From: a plasmid
Strand: one strand, 5' to 3'
Sequence record: NZ_CP027230.1
DNA: 28,678 bases
The first letter of the stretch is position 1; every line of letters begins with the position of its first letter. Positions 1-28,678 of this stretch are shown piece by piece. The notes under the pieces were generated by a model that did no database searches, was not told where the DNA came from, and saw only the letters and a list, made by a program, of their open reading frames with translations. Both the position numbers and the translations under genes were made by a program.

Positions 1-582
1 CTAAAAGGCTTGCAAATTGGTACCAAAGGAACTCGCCCTGGCATACTTGATACACTTATTCAAAAAAGGCAGTTTATCACCTTACAGAAAAACAAGTATC
101 TGCCCACAGACTTAGGCCTGCAATTTTACAATGCTATCAAGAATTTAGAAGTAGTGAATGTAGCCCAAACCGCCCGTCTTGAATATCAGCTAAAGCAGAT
201 AACAGAGGGTAAGCTACTTGTTACAGAGTATTATAATAATTTGTTGGAGTATGTTAAAAATATAGTGCAAAATATTTTTAACATTGAAGCAGCTGTTAAA
301 GTGGAACGTGAAACATTAGGCACTTGCCCTAAGTGCAAACAAGGAAAAATTGTGGAGGGTAAAAAGGCTTTTGGTTGTACGAACTATAAAAGCGGTTGCG
401 ACTTTACTATTTGGAAAGAGGTAGCACATAAAAACATTACGGCCAAACAAGTGGCCGACTTAATAGGTAAAGGCAAAACAAGTCTTTTAAAAGGGTTTAA
501 GAGTAAAGCGGGTAAAGACTTTGATGCGTATCTAGTACTTAAAAATCTTAAAGTAGAATTTGAATTTAAAAATAATAAATAA
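1..582 (+). CDS. topB: DNA topoisomerase III (type IA), C-terminal 193 aa including a Cys4 zinc ribbon; continues in frame from the window end (gene spans the circular junction)
   Basis: Translation LKGLQIGTKGTRPGILDTLIQKRQFI...CPKCKQGKIVEG...FGCTNYKSGCDF has a type IA topo GIGTPATRA-like helix and a C-terminal Cx2C..Cx4C zinc ribbon. The frame is open from nt 1. Stop at 580-582. Confidence 0.75.
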   Translation, partial: LKGLQIGTKGTRPGILDTLIQKRQFITLQKNKYLPTDLGLQFYNAIKNLEVVNVAQTARLEYQLKQITEGKLLVTEYYNNLLEYVKNIVQNIFNIEAAVKVERETLGTCPKCKQGKIVEGKKAFGCTNYKSGCDFTIWKEVAHKNITAKQVADLIGKGKTSLLKGFKSKAGKDFDAYLVLKNLKVEFEFKNNK

Positions 583-616
583 TTAGTCAATTTAATTTTT
601 TTCAACACTAAACATT

Positions 617-1177
617 ATGAAGAAATTTTTACTTTTTACATTAGTAATTGCTTCTTTCTCTCTTTACGGACAACGTAAAGAAAACGGTTGGGCATTGCAA
701 GCCCGATATGGTATTATGGAGGGTAAAGGAGAAATGAACGGCATAGCTTCCGAACTTAATTTTGGTACAGGTGTTACCATAGGAAAGCACGGAGCTTTAG
801 CCGAAGCAAATTTATTTTTACAAGATTATTACGTAGATAAGGACAATCTAAATTTGCCTTATAAACTCTATGGCCTAAATGCTCTTGGGGGGTGGTCTTA
901 TGAGGGACTTCGTAATTTCTATTTTAATATTAAAGTAGGCGGTTTTGTGGGCGTTGAAAATATTAATAATGGGAATGCTACTGAAAGTCAGTTTGGGACA
1001 CCTTTAACACACCCTGTGAACGGTTTTACTTATGGAGTTTTAGCAGCTCCTGAAGTGGAAATTAAAATTTGGCATAGACTGACTTTTCTTATTAACTTTA
1101 ATCAATATTGGAATAAAGGAAGTAAATATGCTGATTGGAAATACAGCGCAAATGCTGGTATAAAATACTATTTATAA
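617..1177 (+). CDS. Small outer-membrane beta-barrel protein (OMP_b-brl-like), secreted
   Basis: N-terminal signal peptide MKKFLLFTLVIASFSLYGQ. Alternating amphipathic strands. C-terminal aromatic residues (GIKYYL) typical of OM beta-barrels. 186 aa. Confidence 0.5.
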   Translation: MKKFLLFTLVIASFSLYGQRKENGWALQARYGIMEGKGEMNGIASELNFGTGVTIGKHGALAEANLFLQDYYVDKDNLNLPYKLYGLNALGGWSYEGLRNFYFNIKVGGFVGVENINNGNATESQFGTPLTHPVNGFTYGVLAAPEVEIKIWHRLTFLINFNQYWNKGSKYADWKYSANAGIKYYL

Positions 1178-1195
1178 ACTTAAAATATTACGACT

Positions 1196-3517
1196 ATGAA
1201 AAGATTATTACTTTTTGCAATTATTGCTATTGTAGCTGTTTCTCTTAGTATAGTGGGGTGCAGTAAAGACAAAGAACAAGACCCTATACAATGGAAGTTT
1301 GAGGTAAAAGCTGATAAAGACACTATTTCAAATTTAGCGCTTAATGATATTGTTCCTGTAACATACGTTGTAAACAGAAAATACAACGAAGGGGCTACTA
1401 TGCAATACAGGGTAAACCTTGATAAATCACAAGGTTTTACTATCTATGATAATAACGACAACGAAGTTAAAGATTTTGGTTTTCAAAATCTAACTTCTGA
1501 TACTTTAAAATTAAAGTATAAAGGTACCTTTCAAGGTATTCATTCTTTAAGTGTTACGTTTAAAAACTCAAAAGATGAAAGAGTGGATAAAAGGGTGACG
1601 TTTGATTACAATATAAAAAATAAAAATAAGACATTTTCTATTGAACAAAAAGCAATTACAAACCTTGATAATATAGTGCAAGGGCAAGATGTTGAATTGT
1701 CTTTTGAAATAAAGGAAGAGGCGCAGACGCAGGAAAATTTTCAAATACAGTTTCTAAGTTTTGATGCAGCTGATGAAAGATTACAAAAATCAAAGATATA
1801 CCTAAATAACAATGAAGTACAAACAAATAAGTGGTATTCTATAAGCAAAGATTTTATTAATAAAATACAATTAAATTCATTTAATGCAGGAACAAAAAAA
1901 TTGGTATATGAACTTAAAAATTCTGTTTATACTGAAAGAAAAGAACTTGATATAAATGTAAAAAACGCTGTGATATCACTTAAAAACATAACTCTAAAAG
2001 CAGATGATATTTATATAAACGAACCTTTCAAAATTGAGTGTGAAGTAGAAAAAACACATCCTAATAATAAAAAAATAGAATATAAAACTTGGTTATCATC
2101 AGGAAATCCAGCTAATTTTAATTTTCTTACAATTACATATAAAAGTTTGGAAATTAATGATGGTAACTTGTTTCCATTAGAATTTAAAGCAAATAGTGCT
2201 ATAGAATATGTTTTAAACATTCAGGTAAAAGACGAATATGGCAATGAGAGTGAAGTAAAAAGAATCTCAATAATAGTAAAGAACAACGATTTTACCATTG
2301 AGCAAATACTAAATACTAACTTGGAAAATGTAGAACAAGGACAAGAAGTTAAGATAATTCTTAAAGCTAAAGAAGATCGTCTTAGTAATGAATTGTTTGA
2401 AATACAATTTTTAGGGTTTGATACAACCGATTCAAACTTACAGAATTCAAAAATTATTTTCAATAATGAGGAAATACAACTTAAAAAGTGGTATACATTT
2501 AATAAAAACTCAGATAATCAATTAAGTATTAAAAGTTTTAAATCAGGTAGTAAAAAGTTAATTTATCAAATAAAAAATTCATCTATTACCAAGAGTAAAG
2601 AAGTAGATATTAATATCTTGCCTGAGCAATTTAATGTAAAAGCGGAAACTCCTTTTAAAAAAATTGTTCCTGAAAAGCCTTTTAACTTTAAACTGATTAT
2701 TGAGACAAAAAATCATAATAAAGAAGTAAGATATTTTATTCATTCTAATATGAAAAAACTAATATATGATAACAAAGTTTATTTAAAAGGAGAAAATATC
2801 CATATTCAATTTGATAATGAAAAAGAAAAAAAAGAAATTGAACTTCAAGGAATTATTGATATGAATACAAAAAATTCTGATATAATAGTTAACAATTCTG
2901 ATAACATATCTAAATCTACAACTCCTAATGCAGTCATATTAACACCTTTAACAATTAATAAAATAAGTTTGTTAGGTAAATCTTATTTTAATATTAACGA
3001 TCATTATGTTCCAACTGGTTTAATCCGAAGTGTTTTTTATATAGGGAAGAAAACTTCACTTAAAAAAGATGAAGATATTCAAAAGGAAAATATTATGTAT
3101 AAAATAATATTTCAAAAAGAAGAAAAAAATGGGAAAGGGAAAATAGAAAAAATTGAAAAAGAATTATCTCATATAGATATATTTGAAACCCCTAGTCCTA
3201 ATTTCACTTCTGAAGAAGAAAAACATGATTTGGAGCCTGATTATGAACGTAATAATTATGAAAATGTGAAAATTTTATATGAAAGTGAATGGAGAAACGA
3301 TGGACTTGCATATAAAGATAATGTATCTATTGAAATATATTATAAGAATAAAAAAGTATATGAAGCTAAAGATATAAAAGGATTTTATAAAAACTTATTA
3401 TCTATTAATCCTTCAACTAATAAAACTTATAGCAAAAATTTTTGGAATATATTACAATCAGTAAAAGTAGCGGAAGACAGGATTTTCTATGAAAACTACG
3501 ACCATATTTCCAAGTAG
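1196..3517 (+). CDS. Large surface lipoprotein with two tandem ~115-aa repeat domains
   Basis: Signal peptide plus lipobox (LSIVGCS). Two homologous blocks: ...IEQKAITNLDNIVQGQDVEL...FQIQFLSFDAADERLQKSKIYLNNNEVQTNKWY... versus ...IEQILNTNLENVEQGQEVKI...FEIQFLGFDTTDSNLQNSKIIFNNEEIQLKKWY... K/N/E-rich, 773 aa. Confidence 0.6.
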   Translation: MKRLLLFAIIAIVAVSLSIVGCSKDKEQDPIQWKFEVKADKDTISNLALNDIVPVTYVVNRKYNEGATMQYRVNLDKSQGFTIYDNNDNEVKDFGFQNLTSDTLKLKYKGTFQGIHSLSVTFKNSKDERVDKRVTFDYNIKNKNKTFSIEQKAITNLDNIVQGQDVELSFEIKEEAQTQENFQIQFLSFDAADERLQKSKIYLNNNEVQTNKWYSISKDFINKIQLNSFNAGTKKLVYELKNSVYTERKELDINVKNAVISLKNITLKADDIYINEPFKIECEVEKTHPNNKKIEYKTWLSSGNPANFNFLTITYKSLEINDGNLFPLEFKANSAIEYVLNIQVKDEYGNESEVKRISIIVKNNDFTIEQILNTNLENVEQGQEVKIILKAKEDRLSNELFEIQFLGFDTTDSNLQNSKIIFNNEEIQLKKWYTFNKNSDNQLSIKSFKSGSKKLIYQIKNSSITKSKEVDINILPEQFNVKAETPFKKIVPEKPFNFKLIIETKNHNKEVRYFIHSNMKKLIYDNKVYLKGENIHIQFDNEKEKKEIELQGIIDMNTKNSDIIVNNSDNISKSTTPNAVILTPLTINKISLLGKSYFNINDHYVPTGLIRSVFYIGKKTSLKKDEDIQKENIMYKIIFQKEEKNGKGKIEKIEKELSHIDIFETPSPNFTSEEEKHDLEPDYERNNYENVKILYESEWRNDGLAYKDNVSIEIYYKNKKVYEAKDIKGFYKNLLSINPSTNKTYSKNFWNILQSVKVAEDRIFYENYDHISK

Positions 3518-3550
3518 TTTTACCTTATTTCTACTCTATTCCTACCGAAC

Positions 3551-3580
3551 AAAAACCACCCCATAAAGGGGTGGTTTTTT
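3551..3580 (+). terminator. Rho-independent terminator after the lipoprotein gene
   Basis: AAAAACCACCCC-ATAA-AGGGGTGGTTTTTT: GC stem followed by a T-run, 34 nt after the stop codon. Confidence 0.7.
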
Positions 3581-3807
3581 AATTTTGAAAGCAATTCACA
3601 ACCAAAATATAAGGGAGAAGGTGTATGTTATAATTTTTAATACTTCCCTTATATTTATTTTGTTGTAAAATTAGGTTTTTGTAATAATAACTTAATAAAG
3701 TTAGCTATGATGATGAACTTAACTTTAAAAGTTGGTGCAAAGTTACAAAAATATTTTTACTTACACAAACATTCATACTTTATTTTTTTTCACAATTTTT
3801 TTCTTCA

Positions 3808-4934
3808 CTTCCTGCCCCTTAAAATAGGAGTAAAACATTTGTGGTGAGCCAGCCCCAAACTTTTGGACGCTGACATCACTGATCACAAATGTTTTACAAC
3901 CTTAATAGTGGTGTTGCTCACCAAAAATAAGCAACCTCGTACACAAGGTACAGAGGTAGCTTTTTTTTGGCTTCACAACAACCAAAAGCGGTGTAAAGAG
4001 GGGTGAAAAGACCTTGCCCCCACTCGTGGACGGCAAGACCTTTTTTCACCCCTCTTTACAGTGTAGTTTCTAAGCCCACCCACCGCCCTTTTGCCCCTCC
4101 CCTAACCCCTCCCCACAGGGGAGGGGAACAGACCCGAATAAGAATAAGGTGACTCATTTTTACATCGTTTTTGATTAACAGAAAAGTGTAAGTTATTATT
4201 TATCAACTAATTAAGTATTTTCTTTAACCTGGCATCAAGTAGCCTATTTATAAGCTCTTTTTTTTATTTTGGGCGTTACCACAAGGGTCGGGCTATACTC
4301 TGCAATAAAGCTCTGAGAAGTCAAGAAAATTAAGCGTTTTAGAAGTCTTCCACTAAAGTGGCAAGCCTTCTCCTCCGCTGATTTTCTAAAGCCTTCTCAT
4401 TTACTTTATTTCCGTTCCTATCCCTAACGCGGGGGGACAGTTACCAAGTCCCTATTTTGTTCTTTTTTTTCCTTAATTTTTTCTCACTTCAAATCATCTT
4501 CTTTAGCTCTCATTTTTCTACTGCAAAGGTATGGCGGGGGGAAAACACAGCAAAAAAAATGAGGCTTTCATTAATTTTTTTGTCCTCGCCAGAGGCTGCG
4601 GAAAAAAATTAACGAACCTTCCTAATTTTTTTATGCTTTAGTTTTACGAGAACCCCCCGCCCTGATAGAGCAGTAGAAAAAGAGGCAAAAGAAGATTTAG
4701 GGTTTGAGGCTTTGGGGGAAAAAATATTGTTTGCTTTTTATTTTCTCTTCTCTTTTTTGTCCGAGCCGGACGCGCTTGAAAAACTTTGTTTTTCTGTATA
4801 TATCAAACCGAAAATGATGAAAGAAAAAATATATGGCAAATGTTATATATGTAACAAAATATTTATGAAAAATATACATAATAATTTGTGTATATTATTT
4901 ATTTGTCGTATATTTGCAGTGTAATAATAATTTA
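3808..4934 (+). repeat. Copy 1 of a duplicated structured GC-rich noncoding module. Part A is 3808-4154. A unique 315-bp insertion lies at 4155-4470. Part B, about 4472-4934, ends in a sigma-A promoter
   Basis: Near-identical to 7321-8166 (parts A and B), with an extra AATAAG and the 315-bp insertion. Contains a 14-bp perfect inverted repeat (3830-3843 / 3884-3897), a hairpin plus T8 (about 3935-3968), an interrupted inverted repeat of about 26 bp (3992-4061), a C4TC4-ACA-G4AG4 hairpin (4106-4126), and a long-range helix CTACTGC..GGCGGGGGG / CCCCCCGCC..GCAGTAG (4518-4676). Confidence 0.85.
4875..4922 (+). promoter_or_regulatory. Bacteroidetes sigma-A-type promoter (-33 TTTG, 20-nt spacer, -7 TATATTTG) plus conserved leader GTGTAATAATAATTTA; drives the J-domain gene
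   Basis: TACATAATAATTTG-N20-TATATTTGCAG matches the Bacteroides consensus TTTG-N19-21-TAnnTTTG. It is one of five near-identical copies in the window. Confidence 0.6.
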
Positions 4935-4948: not shown

Positions 4949-5428
4949 ATGAAGTACTTTAACGATTGCAAGACAACAGAAGAAGCAAAAAAATTATTTA
5001 AAAAACTTGCTTTTGAGAACCACCCAGACAGGGGAGGAGATAATACGATAATGCAAGCAATAAATGCAGAATATCAGTTTTTTATTGCTAAATATGCCAC
5101 AGGTACAGCGGAAGAAATTAATGAACAATTTAACGAGCAATTGCGTTATATGGACATCATTGGTAAACTTGCAAACCTTGTGGGTATAGAGGTGGAGCAG
5201 GTGGGGGAATGGCTTTGGATAAGTGGCAACACTTATGCACATCGAGAGCAATTGAAGTCTATAGGCTGCTTGTTTGCGCCTGTTAAGAAATTGTGGTACT
5301 ATAGAGATGAAGAGCATAAGAAGAGCAGCGGAGGAACCTCCCAGAGTATGGAAGACCTTAGAACCAAGTATGGCAGCTTACATATTAATTTAAACAAAGT
5401 ACGCAGCACCTATATAGACCATAAGTAA
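4949..5428 (+). CDS. J-domain (DnaJ-like) protein, 159 aa
   Basis: N-terminus TTEEAKKLFKKLAFENHPDRGGD...MQAINAEYQF: J-domain helix II/III with the invariant HPD tripeptide. The C-terminal ~90 aa has no recognisable similarity. Confidence 0.7.
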   Translation: MKYFNDCKTTEEAKKLFKKLAFENHPDRGGDNTIMQAINAEYQFFIAKYATGTAEEINEQFNEQLRYMDIIGKLANLVGIEVEQVGEWLWISGNTYAHREQLKSIGCLFAPVKKLWYYRDEEHKKSSGGTSQSMEDLRTKYGSLHINLNKVRSTYIDHK

Positions 5429-5654: not shown

Positions 5655-6263
5655 ATGTTTTCAATTACATTTATCGGACGCGTTACAAAGGACGCAACAG
5701 CAAAGCAGTTTGAGAAATCAAATGTGCTTAATTTTACAGTAGCCGTTAATTTTCCTACACAAGGAAAAGACGAGAACGGCGATACCATTTATGACACAAT
5801 TTATTTGCCGTGTTCAAAATGGAACTTACAAGGCGACCTTAATAAGGTTTGTGAACGCTTGAAAAAAGGTGCGCGGATAGCGGTACAAGGGTCTAAGTTG
5901 GAGGTTACAGTTCAGCAAGACCAGAATACAGGGAGGGAATACACAAATTTAAATGTAGTTGTGCAATCCTTTGAAGTGTTAGATTATCCAAAACAACCGC
6001 AAGCCGTTACACAGGGGTACGTACAACAGCAAGGGCAGCAGCTGCCACAGGGAGCTCCTCAACAAGCGTTTTACCCACCGCAAGGACAACAACAAGCACC
6101 ACAAGGACAACAACAAGCACCACAGGGGCAGGGGTTTTTTGCTAGAATGAGCGAAGAACAGGTAGCAATGCAAGCCCAAGCATTTGAGCAAGTACCGCCT
6201 GAAGTACGACACACTTACCAACAAGTACCGCAGGGACTTGAAGACGTAGATTTATCCTACTAA
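5655..6263 (+). CDS. ssb: Single-stranded DNA-binding protein, 202 aa
   Basis: OB-fold pattern hhhGRVTKDA...NFTVAVN...W......L.KG..IAVQG.L conserved against bacterial SSBs. Gln/Pro-rich flexible C-terminus with tandem PQGQQQA repeats and an acidic tip (EDVDLSY). Confidence 0.75.
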   Translation: MFSITFIGRVTKDATAKQFEKSNVLNFTVAVNFPTQGKDENGDTIYDTIYLPCSKWNLQGDLNKVCERLKKGARIAVQGSKLEVTVQQDQNTGREYTNLNVVVQSFEVLDYPKQPQAVTQGYVQQQGQQLPQGAPQQAFYPPQGQQQAPQGQQQAPQGQGFFARMSEEQVAMQAQAFEQVPPEVRHTYQQVPQGLEDVDLSY

Positions 6264-6327: not shown

Positions 6328-6618
6328 ATGACAACGAAAGAAAAAATAAAAGCAATTCGAGAACAATTTAAGCTGCTAGGGTATAATAATAGAAAAATAT
6401 CCGTTACAGATGGGGGCGGAACTCTTGAAAGTAGTATAAGGGTGCGCGTTAAATTCGTTCCTATTCTTGAACAAATCCAAGAAATTAAAGAGGTTGCGGA
6501 AAAGTTTAGGCAAGTTCTTTATGATGAAGCAACAGGTGAGATATTAGCGGGAGGTAATACTTTTGTAAATGTTTCTTATCCAAGCAACGAAGACGAGAGA
6601 AAAAGGTATTTTGTTTAA
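6328..6618 (+). CDS. Hypothetical protein, 96 aa (leading-region cassette)
   Basis: ORF preceded by the 26-bp motif and the GTAATAATAATTTA leader. No recognisable domain. Confidence 0.45.
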   Translation: MTTKEKIKAIREQFKLLGYNNRKISVTDGGGTLESSIRVRVKFVPILEQIQEIKEVAEKFRQVLYDEATGEILAGGNTFVNVSYPSNEDERKRYFV

Positions 6619-6661
6619 CCATAAGCCCCGACCCGAGCAAGTCGCTAAACTGCTCTTTTTT

Positions 6662-7279
6662 ATGAAATCAAAGAAAAAAATCATTTTCCATACAGGGCGC
6701 GGGGGGCGCTTTCACAATGGCGGTTATATAACTGCTAAAAAAATTATAGCTAATGACTTTGATGCAGGTGAGGCAGATAAGTTGGGGTATAATGTTTATT
6801 ACAACTATCAAGGCGAACCTTTCGATTTGCCCGCTACCCCAGAGGGGTGGGAAGGTATAGACCCACAAGAAATTAAAGTGCTCGATGGGGGAGGCGACGA
6901 GGTTTGTGACTATTCCGATATTTTAGCGGATTATGGCACAATGAATTTTGATAACGAATATGACGGTATTACGTGGAAGACTTTCGACTTATTAGAGGAA
7001 AGCGATTTGTTTGTAATGCTTCGCGACCTTACAACCTATGAATGTTATACTTTGTTTATAGAAAGCGATAAGTATAATTTCTACTTGTTAAAGTTACTTT
7101 TTTTAGATGGCAAACGGCTGAATTTGTCAGTGAGAGAAACCGCCGAGATATTAGCCGATGATTACCCTACCGACTTTGACGAACTTGTAAATTGTGGTCT
7201 TATTGAAGAATATGACCCAGAGGGGGGAGAATATTCGGTAGTTAAGGACGGTAAACGTTATCAACTTAATTGGATATAA
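6662..7279 (+). CDS. Strongly acidic hypothetical protein, about 205 aa (start adjusted to the ATG at 6662; the ORF track began at 6569)
   Basis: The 6569 start would force the conserved intergenic 26-bp motif (6630-6655) to be coding and would overlap the upstream ORF. The ATG at 6662 follows the motif directly. The protein carries about 45 Asp/Glu and about 12 Lys/Arg in its C-terminal 175 aa. Confidence 0.5.
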   Translation: MKSKKKIIFHTGRGGRFHNGGYITAKKIIANDFDAGEADKLGYNVYYNYQGEPFDLPATPEGWEGIDPQEIKVLDGGGDEVCDYSDILADYGTMNFDNEYDGITWKTFDLLEESDLFVMLRDLTTYECYTLFIESDKYNFYLLKLLFLDGKRLNLSVRETAEILADDYPTDFDELVNCGLIEEYDPEGGEYSVVKDGKRYQLNWI

Positions 7280-7320
7280 CACCCGCACAGGGTACAAGGG
7301 CAAGGGCTTGTAAAATAGCC

Positions 7321-8166
7321 CTTCCTGCCCCTTAAAATAGGAGTAAAACATTTGTGGTGAGCCAGCCCCAAACTTTTGGACGCTGACATCACTGATCACA
7401 AATGTTTTACAACCTTAATAGTGGTGTTGCTCACCAAAAATAAGCAACCTCGTACACAAGGTACAGAGGTAGCTTTTTTTTGGCTTCACAACAACCAAAA
7501 GCGGTGTAAAGAGGGGTGAAAAGACCTTGCCCCCACTCGTGGACGGCAAGACCTTTTTTCACCCCTCTTTACAGTGTAGTTTCTAAGCCCACCCACCGCC
7601 CTTTTGCCCCTCCCCTAACCCCTCCCCACAGGGGAGGGGAACAGACCCGAATAAGGTGACTAAAATTAAAATACTTATAATTGCCAATTTATTTTTGTTT
7701 TCTCTTAATTTTTTCTCACTTCAAATCATCTTCTTTAGCTCTCATTTTTCTACTGCAAAGGTATGGCGGGGGGAAAACACAGCAAAAAAAATGAGGCTTT
7801 CATTAATTTTTTTGTCCTCGCCAGAGGCTGCGGAAAAAAATTAACGAACCTTCCTAATTTTTTTATGCTTTAGTTTTACGAGAACCCCCCGCCCTGATAG
7901 AGCAGTAGAAAAAGAGGCAAAAGAAGATTTAGGGTTTGAGGCTTTGGGGGAAAAAATATTGTTTGCTTTTTATTTTCTCTTCTCTTTTTTGTCCGAGCCG
8001 GACGCGCTTGAAAAACTTTGTTTTTCTGTATATATCAAACCGAAAATGATGAAAGAAAAAATATATGGCAAATGTTATATATGTAACAAAATATTTATGA
8101 AAAATATACATAATAATTTGTGTATATTATTTATTTGTCGTATATTTGCAGTGTAATAATAATTAT
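7321..8166 (+). repeat. Copy 2 of the duplicated structured GC-rich noncoding module (part A 7321-7661; part B about 7704-8166), ending in a sigma-A promoter upstream of the parA/traA operon
   Basis: Direct sequence identity with 3808-4154 and 4472-4934. Local GC is about 50%, against about 30% for the surrounding DNA. Confidence 0.85.
8107..8156 (+). promoter_or_regulatory. Third copy of the conserved sigma-A promoter (identical to 4875-4922) at the 3' end of repeat copy 2, upstream of parA/traA
   Basis: Identical sequence TACATAATAATTTGTGTATATTATTTATTTGTCGTATATTTGCAGTGTAATAATAATT. Confidence 0.55.
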
Positions 8167-19809: not shown

Positions 19810-20088
19810 ATGAAGAAGATAGACAACTATAAAGATATTAGGAGAAAAGCCGTAATTTGGGGACTTTCAACAATGAAGTTTGCTTTATGGTTTTCTCTCT
19901 CGGTTATATTTGTCTTAACACTGGTATATAGCTTTTCCTTAGTAAAATTAATTGTAGTACTTCTTTGTATAGGAATAGCATATTTAGGTTGTGAGTATGC
20001 CGATAAAAACGACATCACACAGTTTTTCATTAACAATAAGTTTCCTAAAGAAATATCCAGTTTAACAGAGGACGAAGAGGAAGATTAA
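19810..20088 (+). CDS. traF: TraF-like (VirB3-like) small membrane protein, 92 aa
   Basis: Size, position between TraE and the VirB4 ATPase, and two TM helices (AVIWGLSTMKFALWFSLSVIFVLTLVY). Confidence 0.5.
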   Translation: MKKIDNYKDIRRKAVIWGLSTMKFALWFSLSVIFVLTLVYSFSLVKLIVVLLCIGIAYLGCEYADKNDITQFFINNKFPKEISSLTEDEEED

Positions 20089-20094: not shown

Positions 20095-22506
20095 ATGAAC
20101 AACGACAACAAAAAAATAGAAAATGTACTTTTTGGTAGGGAAGGCACTTTTACCATTGGTTACCGTGTGCAGCTGCCTGAAAAATATTCATTAGGAGAAA
20201 AAGACTACGATAATATTAACGAAGTTTGGGCAAGAGCTTTACGCGACTTGCCTCCCTATTCTATATTTTGTAAACACGATATTTTCGAGGTAAAGGAATA
20301 TGATACTTCTGACTTTCCTGAAAGGAATTACTTAGAAGTAGCTACTAAAAAGTATTTTAATGGCAAAGAGTATATGAAACACACTTGTAATATATTCTTT
20401 TCTTTGCCTAACAAGTTGCTAAATGTAACCTATCTTAAAAATCCTTTACGCCCCCCTCATAAAAGGCATTTTACAGAGTTTGACGAAAGAATAGAAGAAT
20501 TTACCCAACAAGTAGAACAAACTGTGCTTTATCTCAATAAGGCACAGTTGGCCAGTGGTAACAAAATAGTTGTAACTCCCTTAGATGAAAAGTATATGCA
20601 AAATTACTATAGTTACTTTTCAAGGGGGTTAGATGATTCAACTCGTGATATTATCAAGAACGACAAGTATTTGTTAGTAGGGGATAAATATGTAGGAGTG
20701 CTTAGCTTTCCTACAGAAGAAAAGTTTCCTGAGACGATAGAAACTTGTAAAATAGAAACTTCAAGCAAAAATGCTAAATACAGTTTCTTTCAAAATTACG
20801 GCGAATTTTTTTCTTTCAATATTCCTTGCACTCACATTTATTGCCAAGTGGCATTTATGGACGATCTTAAAAAGCACTATAATGATGCTCTTAGGAATAA
20901 CGCAGAACTTCATAAATCAAGAATGTTTGATCAGCAGAACAAACATTTTGCAGAGGTAACAGGTAAGATGTTAGAAAATATGGCATTAAAAGGTGATACC
21001 GAACGAATTATAAGAGGGCATAACAATGTTATATTATTTGCAGATAGTGAAGAAAAACTAAAGTCTGTAAAGAAAGATGTAAGGGCTATTTTTATAGGGC
21101 TTGATATTAAACCTAATGAACCATCAGGCGACAACCAATTAGCTATATACGAGTATTCTTTTCCACTAAATAACCATAAATTTGTAAAGAGCCATTTGTA
21201 TATAGCCAGCTTACAAATGTTTGCGGCCTTTATGAATGTTACAGGAAGCTATACAAGCGACCCTAAAGGGGTGCGCTTTAACAGCAGATTAGACAACACG
21301 CCTGTAACCATAGATATATGGGACGAGAAAAAGAAGTATATAAACGCCCGAAACTTCTTTATATTAGCAAGTACAGGGGGCGGTAAAAGTTTCTTGGCTA
21401 ACCACATCTTAACTTATGCTTATGGTGATAACACCAAATCGGTAGTGGTAGATTTAGGAGGCTCATTTAAAAAACTCACTACTTTGTTTCCACAAAGTGA
21501 AACTTCTTATATTACCTATAAGGAGGGGGAAGGACTTGGTATAAATCCTTTTTATGTAGAGGATCATAGCAAGGTAAGTGTGGAGAAATTAGAAACCTTA
21601 GCAGACTTTATAGGGGTACATTATAGGCGTGAACGCGAGATAAACCAAGAGGAGCGAAGTACCATTGTAAATATGTTAAAGCTGTATTACAATGCTGTAA
21701 CAGAAGGCCATTCTTTGCCTCAATTTATTGATACAGTGGATATGTACCGTACTGATTTTGAAAGGGAATTATCTATTAATAAGGACTTTTTCGACATTGA
21801 GGAATTTTTATTAATTATGCGTGACTTCACGCAAGGAGGTGTTTACAGTTTTTTGTACGAAAAAGTAGATAACTCTTTTTCTGCTCACATCAAAGATAAA
21901 AAACTAATAGTTTTTGAACTTGATAAGATAAAGGGTAACAAACTACTTTTGTCAGTAATGTTACAGCTTATATCTACTACTATTGAACAGGTAATTTGGA
22001 ATGACCGAAGCACAAAAGGTTATATCTTTTTTGACGAGGTGGCCGAACAGTTTCAGTGGGAAGGTATGTTAAGGCGTATAGCTTACTTCTACCAAGCTAT
22101 TAGAAAGCATTCAGGGTCTATAGGTATCGTACTACAGTCCGAAAGTCAGTTACCTGAAAGCCCTTTATCAAATGCTATTATTGAGAATACTCAAATTCTT
22201 TATGTACTCAATTCAAATGACCTAAAGGCGTTGGCCAATAGGTTTAATATGAGCGAACACGCTTATTATCAAATGACCTCTTTAAATTCAGACACAAGCG
22301 AAGAAAACCCGCGCCCTTATACTGAAATTTTCATAAAAAGGGGTAATCACCACCAAGTTTATAGGTTGGAGGTGCCCAAAAAAATATTTTGGGCATATCA
22401 AACTGAAGGTATAGAAAATGAGCAATTAATGCGTTACTATGAAGAGTTAGGAGATATGGAACAGGCTATAGACAGAATGATGAAAGAAAAAGGTCAGAAA
22501 GATTAA
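20095..22506 (+). CDS. traG: TraG, VirB4-family type IV secretion ATPase, 803 aa
   Basis: Walker A ASTGGGKSF with a downstream Walker B-like block. Size and position match Bacteroidetes TraG. Confidence 0.85.
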   Translation: MNNDNKKIENVLFGREGTFTIGYRVQLPEKYSLGEKDYDNINEVWARALRDLPPYSIFCKHDIFEVKEYDTSDFPERNYLEVATKKYFNGKEYMKHTCNIFFSLPNKLLNVTYLKNPLRPPHKRHFTEFDERIEEFTQQVEQTVLYLNKAQLASGNKIVVTPLDEKYMQNYYSYFSRGLDDSTRDIIKNDKYLLVGDKYVGVLSFPTEEKFPETIETCKIETSSKNAKYSFFQNYGEFFSFNIPCTHIYCQVAFMDDLKKHYNDALRNNAELHKSRMFDQQNKHFAEVTGKMLENMALKGDTERIIRGHNNVILFADSEEKLKSVKKDVRAIFIGLDIKPNEPSGDNQLAIYEYSFPLNNHKFVKSHLYIASLQMFAAFMNVTGSYTSDPKGVRFNSRLDNTPVTIDIWDEKKKYINARNFFILASTGGGKSFLANHILTYAYGDNTKSVVVDLGGSFKKLTTLFPQSETSYITYKEGEGLGINPFYVEDHSKVSVEKLETLADFIGVHYRREREINQEERSTIVNMLKLYYNAVTEGHSLPQFIDTVDMYRTDFERELSINKDFFDIEEFLLIMRDFTQGGVYSFLYEKVDNSFSAHIKDKKLIVFELDKIKGNKLLLSVMLQLISTTIEQVIWNDRSTKGYIFFDEVAEQFQWEGMLRRIAYFYQAIRKHSGSIGIVLQSESQLPESPLSNAIIENTQILYVLNSNDLKALANRFNMSEHAYYQMTSLNSDTSEENPRPYTEIFIKRGNHHQVYRLEVPKKIFWAYQTEGIENEQLMRYYEELGDMEQAIDRMMKEKGQKD

Positions 22507-22530: not shown

Positions 22531-23034
22531 ATGAAAAAACTTAGTACAATTATTCTTTTGTTAGCCTCTTATATAGGCTATAGTCAAGTGGGGGCAATGG
22601 CTACCTTTGACTTTACACAAGCCCTTAATATGACCGAGTCTATTAATGCGGGGCTCGAACAGTTAGACCAAATTGATAAAATGTTAGACTACTACGAAAA
22701 AGTAGAAGAGAAAATCCAAAAGGTAAACAAAGTTATCCTAAAACTAGAGAGAGTTAAGGATATAGTAACAGGGCAAAGAAAAATCTTAAACGGTGTAGAA
22801 AAAGCTAAGAAATTTATCACTTCTTTGAGTTCTACAGAACTTAAAAAAGCCTACACTTCAAACCTTTCAGACATACTAAAAGAATCTCAAAGAGTTTCTA
22901 ATGAGTTATCCAATATCACAAGGGATAATTACCTCAATCTTACTGATAAAGAACGTATCGAAATGATTGAGAAATATGAGAAGAAAATAAAAATATTAAA
23001 GGCTCGTCTTAGAGTAGGTTACGGTGTTAATTAA
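22531..23034 (+). CDS. Secreted coiled-coil protein, 167 aa (TraH/TraI-position protein of the T4SS)
   Basis: Signal peptide MKKLSTIILLLASYIGYSQ. Charged helical C-terminus. Confidence 0.35.
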   Translation: MKKLSTIILLLASYIGYSQVGAMATFDFTQALNMTESINAGLEQLDQIDKMLDYYEKVEEKIQKVNKVILKLERVKDIVTGQRKILNGVEKAKKFITSLSSTELKKAYTSNLSDILKESQRVSNELSNITRDNYLNLTDKERIEMIEKYEKKIKILKARLRVGYGVN

Positions 23035-23045
23035 AAATACAAACG

Positions 23046-23864
23046 ATGGACTTTGATTTTATCAATGAACTGCGTAAAATGCTGCAAAGCGAAGAAGTCT
23101 TTGAATATTCAATTGACGGTTTGCAATATGCAGCAATGGCATTTTTTATTTTCAAGATGATTCAGCTTGTATTTAAAAAATCAACAGACCCTAAAATAGG
23201 GTATTCTGATTTTGCTCGCTTAGGTGGCTATATCATATTGGTAGGAAGCTCAAGTAAAATTATAGACGGTTTGGAAGATGTTTTTGCAACAATAGACAAT
23301 GCGTTTATGAACAATCCAAACGACTTCTATCTAAGAATACACGAACATATTGCAGCCCAATATATGATTACTTATGACAATATGGACTTTTTCGATATGA
23401 TTTTTGGTACCTTAGATTTGGTAGGAAGTGCGTTGTATTATGTAATTTTTTTGCTTATATCAGCTTGCTGTAAGATAGCGGACTTAAGTATTACAGCGGC
23501 CTATTTAGTGCAGCGTGTTTTTATTATAGAGTTGTTGAAATTCTTGCTGCCTCTAGTAACTGTATTGTCTATCTTTGAAAAATTTGAAAATTTGCTTATC
23601 TCTTGGGTAAAGAGATATGCAGGAATGATAATTTTAGGGGTAGCCTACATAGCTATTATAAAATTTATGTACTTTGTTCAAGATTCAATAATGTTACAGT
23701 TTCATTCAGAAGAATTTACTCCTAATCTAAAACAAGAAGAAACGAGTTTTACACCACTTACAAATCTTATATATGGTGCTTGTATAGCAAGCGTACTTTG
23801 TTTTACTATAAAAGTAAAATTAATGTCTATTGTAACCAATTACATTCAAAGTTATTTTAGTTAA
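23046..23864 (+). CDS. traJ: TraJ-like (VirB6-like) polytopic membrane protein, 272 aa
   Basis: Five to six predicted TM helices. Position after VirB4. Confidence 0.5.
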   Translation: MDFDFINELRKMLQSEEVFEYSIDGLQYAAMAFFIFKMIQLVFKKSTDPKIGYSDFARLGGYIILVGSSSKIIDGLEDVFATIDNAFMNNPNDFYLRIHEHIAAQYMITYDNMDFFDMIFGTLDLVGSALYYVIFLLISACCKIADLSITAAYLVQRVFIIELLKFLLPLVTVLSIFEKFENLLISWVKRYAGMIILGVAYIAIIKFMYFVQDSIMLQFHSEEFTPNLKQEETSFTPLTNLIYGACIASVLCFTIKVKLMSIVTNYIQSYFS

Positions 23865-23867: not shown

Positions 23868-24602
23868 ATGTCAGAAGAAAAAAAAAGAAAATCAATAGGG
23901 AATAAGGCTGTTACCTTGGGAGCAGACTTTTATACGACCTTAAAACGCAATAATATTGCTGTTTTAGGGGTGTGCGCTGTAGCTATTGTAGTTATTATAG
24001 GTTCTTTTATGTTGGTGGCCTCTATAGCTTCTAATTACCAACAAAATGTATATGCAGTAGACAGTAAGGGCGACGTAATACCTTTGCGTCTACTTCATAT
24101 AGAAGAAGACAGAGAAATAGAAATCAAAGCTAACTTGGATAGATTTGTAGATTTGTATTTTGACTTAGACGGTTTTACAATAAAAAAGAAGTTAGAAAAA
24201 TTGTTGTGGGTGTTAGATGATAAGCCTTCAACCACCGTTAAACAACAAATGAACTCTGGCTATTTTAATGATTTTACCAATATAGCAGGTCTTCAACAAA
24301 AAGCTTATATATTGGGTAACACAATTAAGGTAACTAAAAAAGAGCCTTATAAAGCTCAATTTAGGGTAAGAATACAACGTATCAACGGCAGCGCTATAAA
24401 CTACTATAATGCTGATGTAGATTGCGAAATGATAGAAGTAAGTCGCAATTATCCTTTGAATCCTTATGGTCTTCTTATTACTGACTTTAACGTAATTATC
24501 AAAGGTATTAAAGATATAAACGAAGATGAGTATACCAAAGAAGATGAGGAAAACGACAAAATGTTAAACCAAAATGTAATAGAAGATGGACGCACAGACT
24601 AA
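23868..24602 (+). CDS. traK: TraK-like (VirB8-like) bitopic protein, 244 aa
   Basis: Single N-terminal TM helix (IAVLGVCAVAIVVIIGSFMLVASI) followed by a globular domain. Gene order J-K-M-N. Confidence 0.5.
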   Translation: MSEEKKRKSIGNKAVTLGADFYTTLKRNNIAVLGVCAVAIVVIIGSFMLVASIASNYQQNVYAVDSKGDVIPLRLLHIEEDREIEIKANLDRFVDLYFDLDGFTIKKKLEKLLWVLDDKPSTTVKQQMNSGYFNDFTNIAGLQQKAYILGNTIKVTKKEPYKAQFRVRIQRINGSAINYYNADVDCEMIEVSRNYPLNPYGLLITDFNVIIKGIKDINEDEYTKEDEENDKMLNQNVIEDGRTD

Positions 24603-25770
24603 AAAAACATATATCTTTTATGGGTCTATAGGGGGATTTGTTATATTAGCTTTGTTAGGTTGGAGTATGATGAGTTCAGACAAAAAACCAGAGTCTGAAA
24701 AAATTGAAACACCTGAGAAAAAGAGGGAAGCCTACGACAGCCGACTACAAGCCTACAATACAGATAAACAAGAGGCTAACATGGGAGATTTGAACAAGTC
24801 TTTTGGCAATACTGATAAAAAGGAAGCTGACAACTCAAAAAATAGCGATAATAGCTTATTTGCTGATATAGATAGACAAATAGCTAATATGGCAGGGAAT
24901 CGCCAAGAGCCTCAAGAGCCTGAGAACGCCCCACCTCCTGCAGCCCCTGAACCCCAACGCCAATCCGTTAGTACAAGTTTAGGAACTGCCACAGGCGGGG
25001 GCGGTAGTGGTGGGAGTGTTTCCTCTACGCCCGCCAAAAAGTCTCGTAAGGAATTGCGAAACGAACGACTACAAGAAGAAGCGAAACAAGCTATTGCCAA
25101 TGGAGATTATAATAATCCTGTTATAGTGTCTGCTAAAGCAAGTCAGCAAACAATTCAAAAAGAAACAGGCAATAATACAGATTTTTCAGAGGTAGACAAA
25201 TATATTCCTACAGCTTCTGCAAGCGCTCCCCCTACTCGTATCGATGTAAAAAGTGGTAAGCCTCAAAAATTTTCTGATTTGCCCGCTACCGAGCAGCGTA
25301 GAATACTACTGCAAACTGGGCAAGCACAATACAAAGAAAGCGAATACATACAGGCTAAAATAGTTTCCACTGGTAAAATCAAACCAGGGCAAACTATTTA
25401 CTTAATGCTACAGGAAGACGCAGTACTATCTTTTAGAAAAGTGCCAAGAGGGACTCGTGTTGCGGGTATTGTTCGTATGAATGACAACCGTCTTACCGTT
25501 GTTTTTTCTTCAATCAATATTAAGGGAGAGATTTTAGATGTAACATTAGATTTATATGGGACAGACGGAATATTAGGTCTTCCAGTGAGCGGAGAAGATG
25601 TTACAAGAGAAGCAAAAGATGAAGGTATAAATGAAGCTATATCACGCACAGGGCGTGTGGGAAGAGTTATTGGAACTATAGGGCAAAGTCTTAAAAAAAC
25701 AAAAGACAACTCGGTAGACTTAGGTAATAATATCTCGTGTATTTTACGAAATAGACATAAAAAAGAATAA
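24586..25770 (+). CDS. traM: TraM-like (VirB10-like) protein, 394 aa
   Basis: N-terminal TM helix, a long disordered Pro/Glu/Gly-rich linker (PQEPENAPPPAAPEPQ...GGGGSGGS), and a C-terminal beta-rich domain. This is the typical VirB10 architecture. Confidence 0.55.
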   Translation: MDAQTKKTYIFYGSIGGFVILALLGWSMMSSDKKPESEKIETPEKKREAYDSRLQAYNTDKQEANMGDLNKSFGNTDKKEADNSKNSDNSLFADIDRQIANMAGNRQEPQEPENAPPPAAPEPQRQSVSTSLGTATGGGGSGGSVSSTPAKKSRKELRNERLQEEAKQAIANGDYNNPVIVSAKASQQTIQKETGNNTDFSEVDKYIPTASASAPPTRIDVKSGKPQKFSDLPATEQRRILLQTGQAQYKESEYIQAKIVSTGKIKPGQTIYLMLQEDAVLSFRKVPRGTRVAGIVRMNDNRLTVVFSSINIKGEILDVTLDLYGTDGILGLPVSGEDVTREAKDEGINEAISRTGRVGRVIGTIGQSLKKTKDNSVDLGNNISCILRNRHKKE

Positions 25771-25839
25771 AAAATGAGTTACAGCAATAAATATGTAAAA
25801 AAATAAATTCTTATTTCTTTCACCAATAAATATAAAACA

Positions 25840-26673
25840 ATGAAAAAAATATTATTTTTAACCATAGCTTTGTTTGCTATGGCAATACAAGCCCAAGAGA
25901 GTAAGAACGAAAAAACGGTAACTATAGATGTTAATACAGATATGTTTGTTCAGATTGTTTTTAAGACTCCTGTACAATCATTAAGGGTGGGAATGCCTAA
26001 TGTAGTAGAAGCTCAATATACTGAAAATGTAATAACAGTGCAGGCTTTGGCTGAAGAGCTCAAAACAAATCTTACTGTTAAAACTTCTGACGGACTTTAT
26101 TATTCTTTCATTTTGAAAGGGACAGCGGAAGTCCCAATTCTTTTTTATGAAATAAATCCATTGCAAGCAGTTAATGCAGAGGTTACTACAATTAATACAA
26201 GTAAAGAAAGTAATGGCAAGAAACAAGAGTATAAAACCTCAAAAAGTGTAGAAGAAAAAGTATTAGATAAATCAGGATATCTATCTAATAGAAATATAGC
26301 TGAATACAGAAAAATAGAACTTGGTATAAATGGTATTTATACCAATAATGGAAAGTTATATTTTCTTATGGAGGTGAGAAATAGAAGTAATATACATTAT
26401 AATGTAAGCAAACTTTCTTTTGTTACAGCTTCGATAAAAAAGGCTAAAAAACAAATAGACGCAGAGGAACAAGAATTTGAACCATTGTATTTTTATCCAG
26501 AGTTTACCGAGATAAAGCCCAAAGGGAAGGTTAAATTTGTCGCAGTATTTAATAAGTTTACACTTAACAACGACAAAGAAATGGAAATTACTTTAACAGA
26601 ACAAGACGGCGAGCGCGTTGTTAGGCTGCTTATCGATACGGAAACGATTAGTAATGCAGAAAATATAAAATAA
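25840..26673 (+). CDS. traN: TraN-like (VirB9-like) secreted protein, 277 aa
   Basis: Signal peptide MKKILFLTIALFAMAIQAQ. Position after TraM. Confidence 0.5.
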   Translation: MKKILFLTIALFAMAIQAQESKNEKTVTIDVNTDMFVQIVFKTPVQSLRVGMPNVVEAQYTENVITVQALAEELKTNLTVKTSDGLYYSFILKGTAEVPILFYEINPLQAVNAEVTTINTSKESNGKKQEYKTSKSVEEKVLDKSGYLSNRNIAEYRKIELGINGIYTNNGKLYFLMEVRNRSNIHYNVSKLSFVTASIKKAKKQIDAEEQEFEPLYFYPEFTEIKPKGKVKFVAVFNKFTLNNDKEMEITLTEQDGERVVRLLIDTETISNAENIK

Positions 26674-26682
26674 ATAATATAT

Positions 26683-26722
26683 ACATAATAATTTGTGTAA
26701 ATTATTTGTTGTATCTTTTGTG
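26683..26722 (+). promoter_or_regulatory. Fifth, more degenerate copy of the conserved promoter/leader
   Basis: TACATAATAATTTGTGTAAATTATTTGTTGTATCTTTTGTGCCATAATAATAATT. Spacer is shortened to about 16 nt. Confidence 0.4.
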
Positions 26723-26752
26723 CCATAATAATAATTCGAAAAATGAATAAAA

Positions 26753-27127
26753 ATGCAGTATTATTGTAAAAAAATCGAACTGAATAATGAGTATGAACAA
26801 ATTTATATTTGCTCATCTAATTTTGACCAAGAAGGCTATATTATAGCAGACAAAGCTTTTGGAGTAGTATTTACAGCAAAAGATGAAATAAAAGATATTT
26901 TTAATATTAACTTCCCTGTAAAATTAAAAGAAGAAGAGTTTGAACTAATTGATAAAGATACTTTTGAAAAAATATATGAATTTTCTTGGGATGTGAAAGG
27001 ATTAGATAAAGGCTACATACAACATTTAAACCATTATAATAAAAAACTTTTAAAGCAGATTGAAGAATTAAAAGGAGAAATAGAATCTATCAAATCCGCA
27101 CTAAAAAAAAATGCTAAAAAAACATAG
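26753..27127 (+). CDS. Hypothetical 124-aa protein with a C-terminal coiled coil
   Basis: ORF driven by the promoter copy above. KKLLKQIEELKGEIESIKSALKK heptads. Confidence 0.4.
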   Translation: MQYYCKKIELNNEYEQIYICSSNFDQEGYIIADKAFGVVFTAKDEIKDIFNINFPVKLKEEEFELIDKDTFEKIYEFSWDVKGLDKGYIQHLNHYNKKLLKQIEELKGEIESIKSALKKNAKKT

Positions 27128-27133
27128 TAAATA

Positions 27134-28678
27134 ATGCCTAAAACCTTAATAATAGCCGAAAAATCAACCCAAATGCGTGAGTATGCCCGCGCATTAGGTT
27201 TTACCCTCAAAGGAGACCGTTACGAGAAAGGCGATACTATCCTTTCCTGTGCAGATGGGCACCTGTTAGAACTTGCTGAAGATACCGCCTATCGAGGGGA
27301 AGGAAAATGGGATAAATCCTATTTGCCACTGCTTCTGCAGATAAAAGATTATAAGTACGAACCTAAGAAAGAAGATAGAAGAAAAGCCCAATTGAAGAAA
27401 TTAGGCGACTTATTAAATAATCCTGAAATCGGTAATATCATTGTTGCCACCGACCCCGACCGTGAGGGGGAACTCATTTTTAGATACATCTATAACTATT
27501 TTAAATGTAAAAAGCCTTTCATTCGTGTGTGGAACTCGGCTTTAGTTGATGAGGGCATTCGCAAAGCTTTTGCACACCCTACCTACAAGCAGGGTGACCC
27601 ATTTTTGGAAAACCTTTGTAAAAGTGGCTATGCTCGTGCTTTTACCGATTGGCTCATTGGCGTAAACGCCACCCAAGCAGCCACCCTACAATTAGGACAA
27701 GGTAAATTGCTATCGATAGGACGCGTACAAAGTACTATTTTAAAGATTATTTGCGATAGGTACATCAAGAATAAGGGGCACGAAAAAACCTATACTTACA
27801 AAATTATCACTAATCATTCTTACAATGGTACTACCTATATGACCGAGAGCCCCATATATGAGAGCAAAGAGCAAGCCCAAGCCGTTTTTAACGGACTTTT
27901 GCCCGCTCATAGCTTTGTATCTCACGAGGTGAAAAAAGTGTCTAAAAACCCGCCTCTATTGCATACGTTGGACAGTTTAACGATTGTAGCTAACAAACTC
28001 TATAAGTACACGCCCGACCAAGTGTTGGCGTCTGCTCAAAAGCTGTATGAAGGTAAATTTTTGTCCTACCCACGTACTGAAGACCCTTATATCACTGAAG
28101 AAGGATATTACAACCTCCAAAAGTTCTTTGTCGGTTTGTGTAGAGATTTTTTGGGTGTTACTGACTTTTCTTTTATGGGAAAACCAAAATCGGTAGATGA
28201 TAGCAAAATTACAGGTTCACACGATGCTTTAATACCTACAGGTTACACTAATGGTTTAGAGAGCTTAGCCGAGCAGGAACGCCGTGTATTTGAACTTATC
28301 CTATATCGCTGTTTAGAAAGCTTTTCCGACAGCTCTCAATATGAAAAAGGCATATATCTTTTTGACAATCAAGGAACGCCTTTTAAAACCAACACTAACA
28401 AACTGTTATATGCAGGTTGGGAGCGTTACACGCCTAAAAACAAAACAGCAGCTACTGATGAAGAGGGTGAAGCAGACGATGAAAAAATTACTGTTTTGGA
28501 TCTCCCTTACAGGCAGGGCGACGCGGTCGCTATCGAGGCGAAAAACGTTCGTGAAATTGAGAGCAGACCTCCCGCTATATACACACCTGCAACCCTTACC
28601 GATGATTTATGTAACTTGGACAAGTTCCTACAAGAACAATCGCCCGAAGTACACAAGGAATTATCATCTCAGTTTGAG
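27134..28678 (+). CDS. topB: DNA topoisomerase III (type IA), N-terminal 515 codons (Toprim and catalytic core); the ORF runs off the window end with no stop
   Basis: MPKTLIIAEKSTQMREYARAL... Toprim (IAEK...TDPDREGE), ...LSYPRTE..Y... catalytic tyrosine region. In frame with the ORF at 1-582 across the window junction. Confidence 0.8.
   Translation, partial: MPKTLIIAEKSTQMREYARALGFTLKGDRYEKGDTILSCADGHLLELAEDTAYRGEGKWDKSYLPLLLQIKDYKYEPKKEDRRKAQLKKLGDLLNNPEIGNIIVATDPDREGELIFRYIYNYFKCKKPFIRVWNSALVDEGIRKAFAHPTYKQGDPFLENLCKSGYARAFTDWLIGVNATQAATLQLGQGKLLSIGRVQSTILKIICDRYIKNKGHEKTYTYKIITNHSYNGTTYMTESPIYESKEQAQAVFNGLLPAHSFVSHEVKKVSKNPPLLHTLDSLTIVANKLYKYTPDQVLASAQKLYEGKFLSYPRTEDPYITEEGYYNLQKFFVGLCRDFLGVTDFSFMGKPKSVDDSKITGSHDALIPTGYTNGLESLAEQERRVFELILYRCLESFSDSSQYEKGIYLFDNQGTPFKTNTNKLLYAGWERYTPKNKTAATDEEGEADDEKITVLDLPYRQGDAVAIEAKNVREIESRPPAIYTPATLTDDLCNLDKFLQEQSPEVHKELSSQFE

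Follow-up and report, generated by a model that had tools for sequence, protein, structure and literature searches.

We found that a 28,678-nt stretch from the plasmid record NZ_CP027230.1 (hereinafter the window, meaning the whole stretch that was analysed) is very probably the whole of a circular plasmid from Capnocytophaga sp. oral taxon 878, a member of the Flavobacteriaceae from the human mouth, and is presented with its circle opened inside a gene coding for a type IA topoisomerase. A sequence-only reading of the same DNA had argued for a complete circular conjugative plasmid from the observation that the last open reading frame (ORF) has no stop and that the window begins with the remainder of the same protein, and its arithmetic was exact. 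Translation of the + strand gave 515 stop-free codons starting with ATG at 27134-28678 (codons 1-515, cut by the linearisation point) and, in frame 1 at 1-582, a further 193 codons followed by a stop (codons 516-708). The 1545 nt from the ATG to the window end are a multiple of three, and joining the end to the start in frame yields a complete topoisomerase III (Topo III)-like protein of 708 aa, the approximate length that had been anticipated.

The two ends of the window are contiguous in vivo and the topoisomerase gene is intact. Contigs overlapping the 28678->1 junction, which the sequence-only reading had proposed looking for, were found in two Logan assemblies of other sequencing runs, reached by exact-protein look-ups and aligned to a doubled window: one (L002 from SRR958156, 7,474 bp) corresponds to window positions 25042..28678 followed by 1..3837, and the other (L003 from SRR935000) to 27949..28678 followed by 1..3837, both gap-free at 100% identity. 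Both contigs break at 3837 and another (L001) begins at 11531, breaks that are explained by a 99-100% identical repeat starting at 3808 and by an iteron array spanning 11381-11587. No terminal duplication of 10 nt or longer was found between the two window ends. The 708-aa protein is deposited in NCBI (AVM51529.1/WP_106099506.1) on a 28,678-bp Capnocytophaga sp. oral taxon 878 record, and all of the six window proteins tested are NCBI proteins of this organism on the same record; since the deposited protein is full-length, its depositors would already have annotated the gene as continuous across the origin of a circular record. That the gene is split in the window results from the point at which this record was opened and is no biological oddity; nor is it a discovery, the sequence and the origin-spanning protein both being public.

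At the level of the protein, Pfam searches recovered Toprim (residues 4-135), Topoisom_bac (159-589) and Toprim_Crpt (647-704) domains, with the Topoisom_bac match extending unbroken over positions 4-406 of the 411 in the profile and crossing the junction at residue 515/516; a Toprim domain and a complete Topoisom_bac core thus stand in this order in one polypeptide. The joined protein also aligned with Escherichia coli Topo III structures (1d6m and others) in a single stretch, residues 5-595 against 3-594, as expected of a genuine joining. In this alignment LSYPRT (tyrosine 312) matches ITYPRS, IIAEK matches FIAEK and ATDPDREGE matches AGDPDREGQ, placing the tyrosine and the acidic (E, DxD) motifs in register; the tyrosine of the E. 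coli ITYPRS motif, Y328, is the catalytic residue.

Two details of the sequence-only reading needed amendment. Its statement that the joined conserved block contains no gap holds against the 709-aa product (P0073) of a relative's uninterrupted gene, which is 91% identical to the joined protein with 0 gaps and has the same residues on either side of the junction (QFE and LKG), whereas against E. coli Topo III there are indels of approximately 3, 2 and 1 residues beside the junction. Because the uninterrupted relative aligns without gaps and with the same junction residues, we regard these indels as a trait of the lineage and not as a break. The gene name topB likewise captured the correct class of enzyme while overstating the family assignment: Topo III models rank first for the joined protein in NCBIfam, yet it misses the curated topB cut-offs (TIGR01056, 329.1 versus 515.75 bits; NF005829, 350.4 versus 597), and its NCBI product name is only 'type IA DNA topoisomerase'. 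Given these scores, it is better described as a divergent Topo III-like type IA topoisomerase than as 'TopB'.

Relatives of the element extend the comparison to the whole circle. Metagenome contigs of 28.2-29.8 kb are collinear with the circularised window throughout at 70-94% nucleotide identity, with the topoisomerase gene in mid-contig; their proteins are 87-97% identical to those of the window, and they occur on human-associated contigs of approximately one unit that are opened at other points. For instance, scaffold_1156 (28,185 bp) is opened at the non-coding repeat (window-equivalent ~4.9 kb), scaffold_632 (29,637 bp) just upstream of the gene for a primase-like protein (~11.5 kb), and scaffold_758 (29,545 bp) just after that gene (~13.5 kb), while scaffold_893 (29,773 bp) and NODE_567 (29,357 bp) are opened elsewhere and have the topoisomerase gene between those coding for TraN and TraO. 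In one relative (L015) the topoisomerase gene forms a single high-scoring segment pair of 2,138 nt with positions 27134-29265 of the doubled window. Together with the junction-spanning contigs and the deposited 708-aa protein, these mid-contig copies uphold the circular replicon of the earlier reading.

The Rep-iteron-Toprim module and alternatives to a plasmid

The iterons, Rep candidate and primase that the sequence-only reading had listed were all recovered, as six 22-nt iterons, a 377-aa replication initiator (Rep) and a Toprim_2 protein. The rep gene (10160..11293, + strand) is followed on its 3′ side by a terminator-like hairpin, then by six copies of AATTGCAAGATACCACGTAC(GG) found by repeat search (11381..11587, +; four of them in 22-nt tandem), and then by an A+T-rich stretch (11588..11760) that is a putative oriV unwinding region; tandem direct repeats next to rep and beside an A+T-rich region are the arrangement of an iteron replicon. 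Further along lies the gene for the Toprim_2 primase-like protein (12052..13008, +), identified with Pfam and by its conserved pairing with Rep. The predicted fold of Rep resembles the winged-helix type seen in pi, RctB and RepE. The combination of such a Rep with iterons, an A+T-rich stretch and ParA, and the lack of an integrase, supports a plasmid.

A GTDB-wide scan with a Rep alignment retrieved 80 loci (L018-L097), not including the source record; in 68 of these a Toprim homologue lies 450-750 nt downstream of the Rep homologue. At 57 of the 80, the intervening DNA has a 14-mer in three or more identical copies, with spacings of ~22-23 nt and longer, and the repeat core at these loci, TTCGGAATTGCACT, shares CGGAATTGCA with the window iteron. 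As Rep, the iteron site and the Toprim gene are conserved together, there is strong support for a predicted Rep-iteron origin in the window. In such a scheme, Rep would bind the six 22-nt repeats 3′ of its own gene, beside the A+T-rich stretch, the conserved Toprim primase-like partner would assist replication by Rep, and partition would proceed via the ParA system. The module is widespread in Weeksellaceae and Capnocytophaga, both on plasmids and in integrated elements or complete chromosomes. Complete chromosomes or Mb-scale contigs account for many of the Rep homologues, one of which, in Daejeonia sp. YH14, has an integrase nearby; the module therefore serves integrated elements as well as plasmids. 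This Rep family, which is uncurated and has a pi/RepE-like fold, constitutes, together with its common iteron core and its obligatory Toprim partner, a replication module that bears on plasmid typing tools, by which such replicons are at present left untyped or labelled 'non-mobilizable'.

Known iteron initiators, namely R6K pi, F RepE, pPS10 RepA and Vibrio RctB, show no detectable sequence similarity to the window Rep, which differs from them in having ~100 extra C-terminal residues and the conserved Toprim partner gene. A homologue 36% identical over 96% of its length adjoins a ParA gene on the Riemerella anatipestifer plasmid pRCAD0416RA-1 (NZ_CP073240.1), which, unlike the window, is a resistance plasmid without transfer genes of the Bacteroidota class of mating-pair formation (MPF-B). 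Many other carriers of the Rep family are chromosomal integrated elements with integrases. Iteron positions and spacings are the same within 1 nt in Cloacibacterium, Chryseobacterium, Kaistella, Daejeonia and a Capnocytophaga metagenome-assembled genome (loci L032-L041, L044, L046, L047, L056 and L065), which suggests that one mobile element may have recently spread across those genera.

The window might instead be the excised circular intermediate of a chromosomal integrative conjugative element (ICE) of the conjugative transposon type rather than a stable plasmid. Conjugative transposons of Bacteroidota typically carry MPF-B transfer genes, and the window has the TraG/VirB4, TraK, TraM, TraN and TraO families in common with CTnDOT-type transposons of Bacteroides; among the CTnDOT products, Exc is Topo III-like and TraA is ParA-like. 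Moreover, Rep-iteron-Toprim homologues lie inside complete chromosomes and Mb-size contigs, and the module of Daejeonia sp. YH14 (L036) has resistance genes in its vicinity and a tyrosine integrase of 422 aa at a distance of ~3 kb. We nevertheless consider an ICE very unlikely. CTnDOT integrates via IntDOT, whereas the window lacks an integrase and, by our prediction, replicates from a Rep-iteron origin: profile searches with every ORF of at least 140 aa in the circularised window found no tyrosine or serine recombinase, resolvase or DDE transposase family, and a tblastn search of the doubled window, for which two tyrosine integrases and one serine recombinase served as queries, gave a best E-value of 2.9. 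Rep, the iterons and ParA are present, the source assembly has the element as a separate 28,678-bp contig, and relatives with an 87-97% identical backbone are all on contigs of at most 34 kb that lack chromosomal flanks; at an identity of at least 87-90% the backbone proteins never occurred on contigs longer than 34 kb. Contigs of 30-42 kb with a member of the same topoisomerase cluster (at least 90% identity) were considered as integrated copies and rejected, as they have a different conjugative backbone, with a CTnDOT-type TraJ, a YWFCY-type coupling protein and a giant helicase-methylase, and nothing in common with the window except the 3′ portion of the gene for the topoisomerase. A scan of the window for tRNA genes returned none.

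Junction-spanning contigs alone cannot tell a circle from tandem head-to-tail copies, whether a multimer or a chromosomal array, and the ~820-nt direct repeat of the window (blocks of ~337 and ~480 nt, 99-100% identical and 3.2-3.5 kb apart) could have caused misassembly. That the element is such an array or an assembly artefact instead of a monomeric circle is highly improbable, given that the record is exactly one unit without terminal duplication, that at least five independent metagenome assemblies of relatives yielded contigs of about one unit opened at different points, that the single scaffold of one relative (L009) has the same repeat arrangement, and that non-plasmid flanking DNA was seen in no contig. 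A small circular genome with an SSB, a primase-like gene and a topoisomerase might also recall a phage-plasmid or other viral replicon; this is almost certainly not the case, as no profile search detected capsid, terminase, tail or lysis genes, none of 50,697 phage records gave a nucleotide match in megablast, and a full conjugation module is present.

Several points weigh against a circular, self-transmissible plasmid. Circularity is argued from the independent contigs and the deposited origin-spanning protein; a megablast search of PLSDB (2024_05_31) with the window gave no nucleotide match, relatives there being recognisable from their proteins only; and homologues of the Rep-Toprim module are also chromosomal, so that the module alone is no proof of an extrachromosomal state. 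Rep matches no Pfam or NCBIfam family at E<=0.01, Pfam Rep_3 included, and its structural model is of moderate confidence (pLDDT 72.5). Among the remaining assignments, MobB, TraK, TraM and TraN (the latter two in NCBIfam) and topB score under the curated NCBIfam cut-offs, and TraE, TraF, TraI, TraJ and TraQ are assigned by position only.

Structured non-coding blocks and a repeated promoter element

The direct repeat consists of two structured non-coding regions. Copy 1 (3806..4932) comprises block A (3806-4142), a unique spacer (4143-4452) and block B (4453-4932), and copy 2 (7319..8164) comprises block A (7319-7655) and block B (7685-8164); block A (337 nt) is 100% and block B (~480 nt) ~99% identical between the copies. 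One copy lies directly upstream of the dnaJ-like and ssb genes and the other directly upstream of the parA-rep operon. No other part of the plasmid is an extreme outlier in fold energy: the blocks have -40 to -52 kcal/mol per 200 nt versus -29 or weaker elsewhere, and their minus strand is always the more stable by 2-5 kcal/mol. Their fold z-scores are -6.7 to -10.3; as the plasmid-wide scan used few shuffles and its z-scores are noisy, we relied on the raw energies. An Rfam scan of the window (E<=0.1) was empty.

Block B forms a single hairpin of ~215 nt (4489-4705 in copy 1), and its minus strand contains at 4524-4554 a promoter motif, TTTG-N19-TACCTTTG, which matches the Bacteroidota consensus perfectly. 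The motif is in the arm that reads from the loop towards the stem base, where its -33 element is base-paired and an 8x8 internal loop contains its -7 element. In the one diverged lineage that is alignable over the blocks (L007/L009), this 31-nt motif is 100% conserved in a block that is 77-78% identical overall. In a lineage further removed, both positions are occupied by duplicated hairpins that cannot be aligned with the blocks yet are as stable. The Elizabethkingia anophelis plasmid NZ_CP016375.1 has large structured non-coding gaps upstream of its SSB and ParA operons, at these two positions and with no sequence similarity to the window blocks. There, a hairpin of ~165 nt (4901-5064) contains TTTG-N21-TACCTTTG, which runs antisense to the genes, lies in the correct arm and has its -7 element placed within an internal loop, and a hairpin of ~480 nt (8409-8890) lies upstream of the ssb operon.

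Masai and Arai reportedly described Frpo/ssi single-strand promoters in 1997. Both these elements, known from the leading regions of F-like and IncI plasmids, and the window blocks are large imperfect hairpins upstream of ssb with the promoter hexamers or their equivalents in the stem, and in both the gene orientation lets one strand be template throughout; they differ in lacking any sequence similarity and in that the elements in the window are of the Bacteroidota type (-33 TTTG, -7 TAnnTTTG). In duplex DNA the promoter motif of the window points away from any gene; in the folded minus strand it would read across the base of the stem into the operon that follows, which is how Frpo single-strand promoters, usually located immediately before ssb in leading regions, are laid out (PMC11541004). 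It is therefore a tentative possibility, one that we rate well below even, that the blocks are Bacteroidota counterparts of the Frpo/ssi promoters. As the transferred (minus) strand enters the recipient, folding of the ~215-nt hairpin would recreate a double-stranded promoter with -33 TTTG and -7 TAnnTTTG elements and a pre-opened -7 bubble, which would drive early transcription of the ssb and parA-rep operons before synthesis of the complementary strand. Alternatively, the same motif may be a conventional promoter from which a structured non-coding RNA is transcribed leftward up to a terminator-like site. In the literature searched, such single-strand promoters are known only with sigma-70 type -35/-10 elements and mainly from proteobacterial plasmids; if confirmed, the counterparts proposed here would extend the model of early expression from the leading region to Bacteroidota.

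On the + strand, repeat and motif searches identified a promoter element of ~47 nt in five copies (4870-4916, 5472-5518, 8102-8148, 11974-12020 and 26677-26720), built as a palindrome TATACA..TGTATA over the -33 TTTG, followed by the -7 TAnnTTTG. The copies respectively precede the dnaJ-like gene, ssb, parA, the primase-like gene, and p124 with the topoisomerase gene. The window has 11 occurrences of the Bacteroidota consensus TTTG-N18-22-TAnnTTTG where 2.06 would be expected, and 0 of 100 shuffles reached 11. The shared element suggests that one regulator, perhaps a repressor, may control the backbone operons as a plasmid-wide regulon.

Transfer and maintenance genes and their closest relatives

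All 26 sizeable genes of the window are on the + strand. GC skew is positive round the entire circle and, with every gene on one strand, is uninformative as an indicator of the origin. Recognisable cargo is essentially nil, with no resistance, toxin-antitoxin or defence genes detected.

The genes concerned with transfer correspond to a Bacteroidota-type conjugation system, and the designation of the element as a conjugative plasmid is sustained by gene content: a MobB/DUF5712 relaxase, a type IV coupling protein, TraG/VirB4, TraK, TraM, TraN and TraO. The relaxase (14552..17710; 1052 aa) matches Pfam DUF5712 in two stretches with 150 bits (cut-off 25) and NCBIfam MobB_relaxase with 169 bits, under the cut-off of 200, its conserved domain being split by an insert of ~700 aa at roughly residues 115-810. 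By eye this insert seems internally repetitive. The long form of the relaxase is common to plasmids of Elizabethkingia and Chryseobacterium shandongense, most homologues having 370-690 aa. Overlapping the relaxase gene and directly upstream of it, a gene for a 219-aa protein (13893..14552) may by its position code for a relaxosome accessory factor, and a putative oriT would, likewise by position, fall in 13425-13892. Downstream of the relaxase gene, profile searches identified the coupling protein of the VirD4/TraG-D family (17754..19397), and then come two small membrane proteins in the TraE and TraF positions (19494..20088; synteny, the second with a weak VirB3 match).

The VirB4-type conjugation ATPase TraG (20095..22506) matches P-loop_TraG of Pfam and scores above the cut-off of the Bac_Flav_CT_G family (TIGR03783, 276.1 versus 261.55 bits). 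It is followed by proteins of 167 and 272 aa in the TraI and TraJ positions (22531..23864), which have no family match and are placed by synteny with NZ_CP016375.1; by a TraK-like protein (23868..24602; TIGR03781, E=7e-14, under cut-off); by TraM (24586..25770; Pfam Transposon_TraM, 73.1 bits); and by the VirB9-like TraN (25840..26673; DUF4138, 118.9 bits in Pfam; TIGR03780, 125.6 bits, under cut-off). Profile searches also covered the 124-aa gene (p124; 26753..27127) just upstream of the topoisomerase gene. Across the point at which the circle is opened follow a TraO-like outer-membrane protein (617..1177; Pfam TraO, 27.2 bits versus a cut-off of 25) and a 773-aa lipoprotein in the TraQ position (1196..3517), itself without family match. 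TraM, DUF4138/TraN and TraO thus exceed the Pfam gathering scores, and TraK, TraM and TraN are the best NCBIfam matches of their genes, though below the cut-offs. The proteins in the TraE, TraF, TraI, TraJ and TraQ positions fit in size and location without a significant profile match, while relatives give faint TraQ_transposon and weak TrbL_3 matches.

Maintenance and DNA-processing genes occupy the interval between these two sets. A 159-aa protein with a weakly J-domain-like N-terminus (4949..5428; DnaJ, E=0.0094, under cut-off) precedes the single-strand DNA-binding protein (SSB; 5655..6263; Pfam SSB, 51.8 bits) and two genes, also covered by the profile searches, for proteins of 96 aa (weak LPD29 match) and 236 aa (6328..7279). 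The ParA-family partition ATPase (8282..9031) matches AAA_31, CbiA and ParA of Pfam and, as its best NCBIfam model, ParA_partition under cut-off; between it and rep are three small genes (103, 193 and 72 aa; 9018..10163) in the same order as in relatives. From this gene content, the element would be self-transmissible by conjugation, with the MobB-family relaxase and the coupling protein working with an MPF-B type IV secretion system formed by TraG, TraK, TraM, TraN, TraO and their neighbours, and the Topo III-like enzyme, SSB and the primase-like protein probably providing accessory DNA processing of a sort commonly carried by conjugative elements.

Iteron plasmids that conjugate by an MPF-B/MobB system are a known kind, and the element, which belongs to it, is poorly described rather than new. 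Literature searches on the taxon, on Capnocytophaga conjugative plasmids and on DUF5712 found no description of the replicon or of DUF5712, and no paper on such a plasmid class for Capnocytophaga. The window accordingly provides a near cargo-free example of a poorly described class, the self-transmissible Flavobacteriales plasmids with Bacteroidota-type transfer. Among the known systems, the closest is the unnamed circular plasmid of E. anophelis F3201 (NZ_CP016375.1; 35,268 bp), which has the same order of Rep, small genes, ParA, SSB, TraQ/TraO/TraN/TraM, VirB4, coupling protein, long DUF5712/MobB relaxase and accessory gene as the window. The 1052-aa relaxase aligns over its full length with those of the Elizabethkingia plasmid and of the C. 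shandongense plasmids NZ_CP033916.1 and NZ_CP033913.1 at 38-41% identity. NZ_CP016375.1 shows no nucleotide similarity to the window, has no annotated topoisomerase, and carries toxin-antitoxin and grasp-with-spasm genes where the window has essentially no cargo. Its Rep was considered as a relative of the window Rep and set aside, as BLASTP found no relationship; the Elizabethkingia plasmid therefore shares the transfer backbone and not the replicon. Despite its full MPF-B set and MobB relaxase, this plasmid is rated 'non-mobilizable' by MOB-suite, as quoted in PLSDB, and current typing schemes appear to miss such plasmids.

A different Capnocytophaga-type backbone was seen at four loci (L100-L103), which code for a CTnDOT-type TraJ, a YWFCY coupling protein, an M23 peptidase and a 2023-aa Toprim-methylase-helicase. 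Here the topoisomerase gene is split into ORFs of 154 and 572 aa, and the 572-aa product belongs to the same cluster (at least 90% identity) as the window enzyme, which suggests that modules may have been exchanged between these elements and the window backbone.

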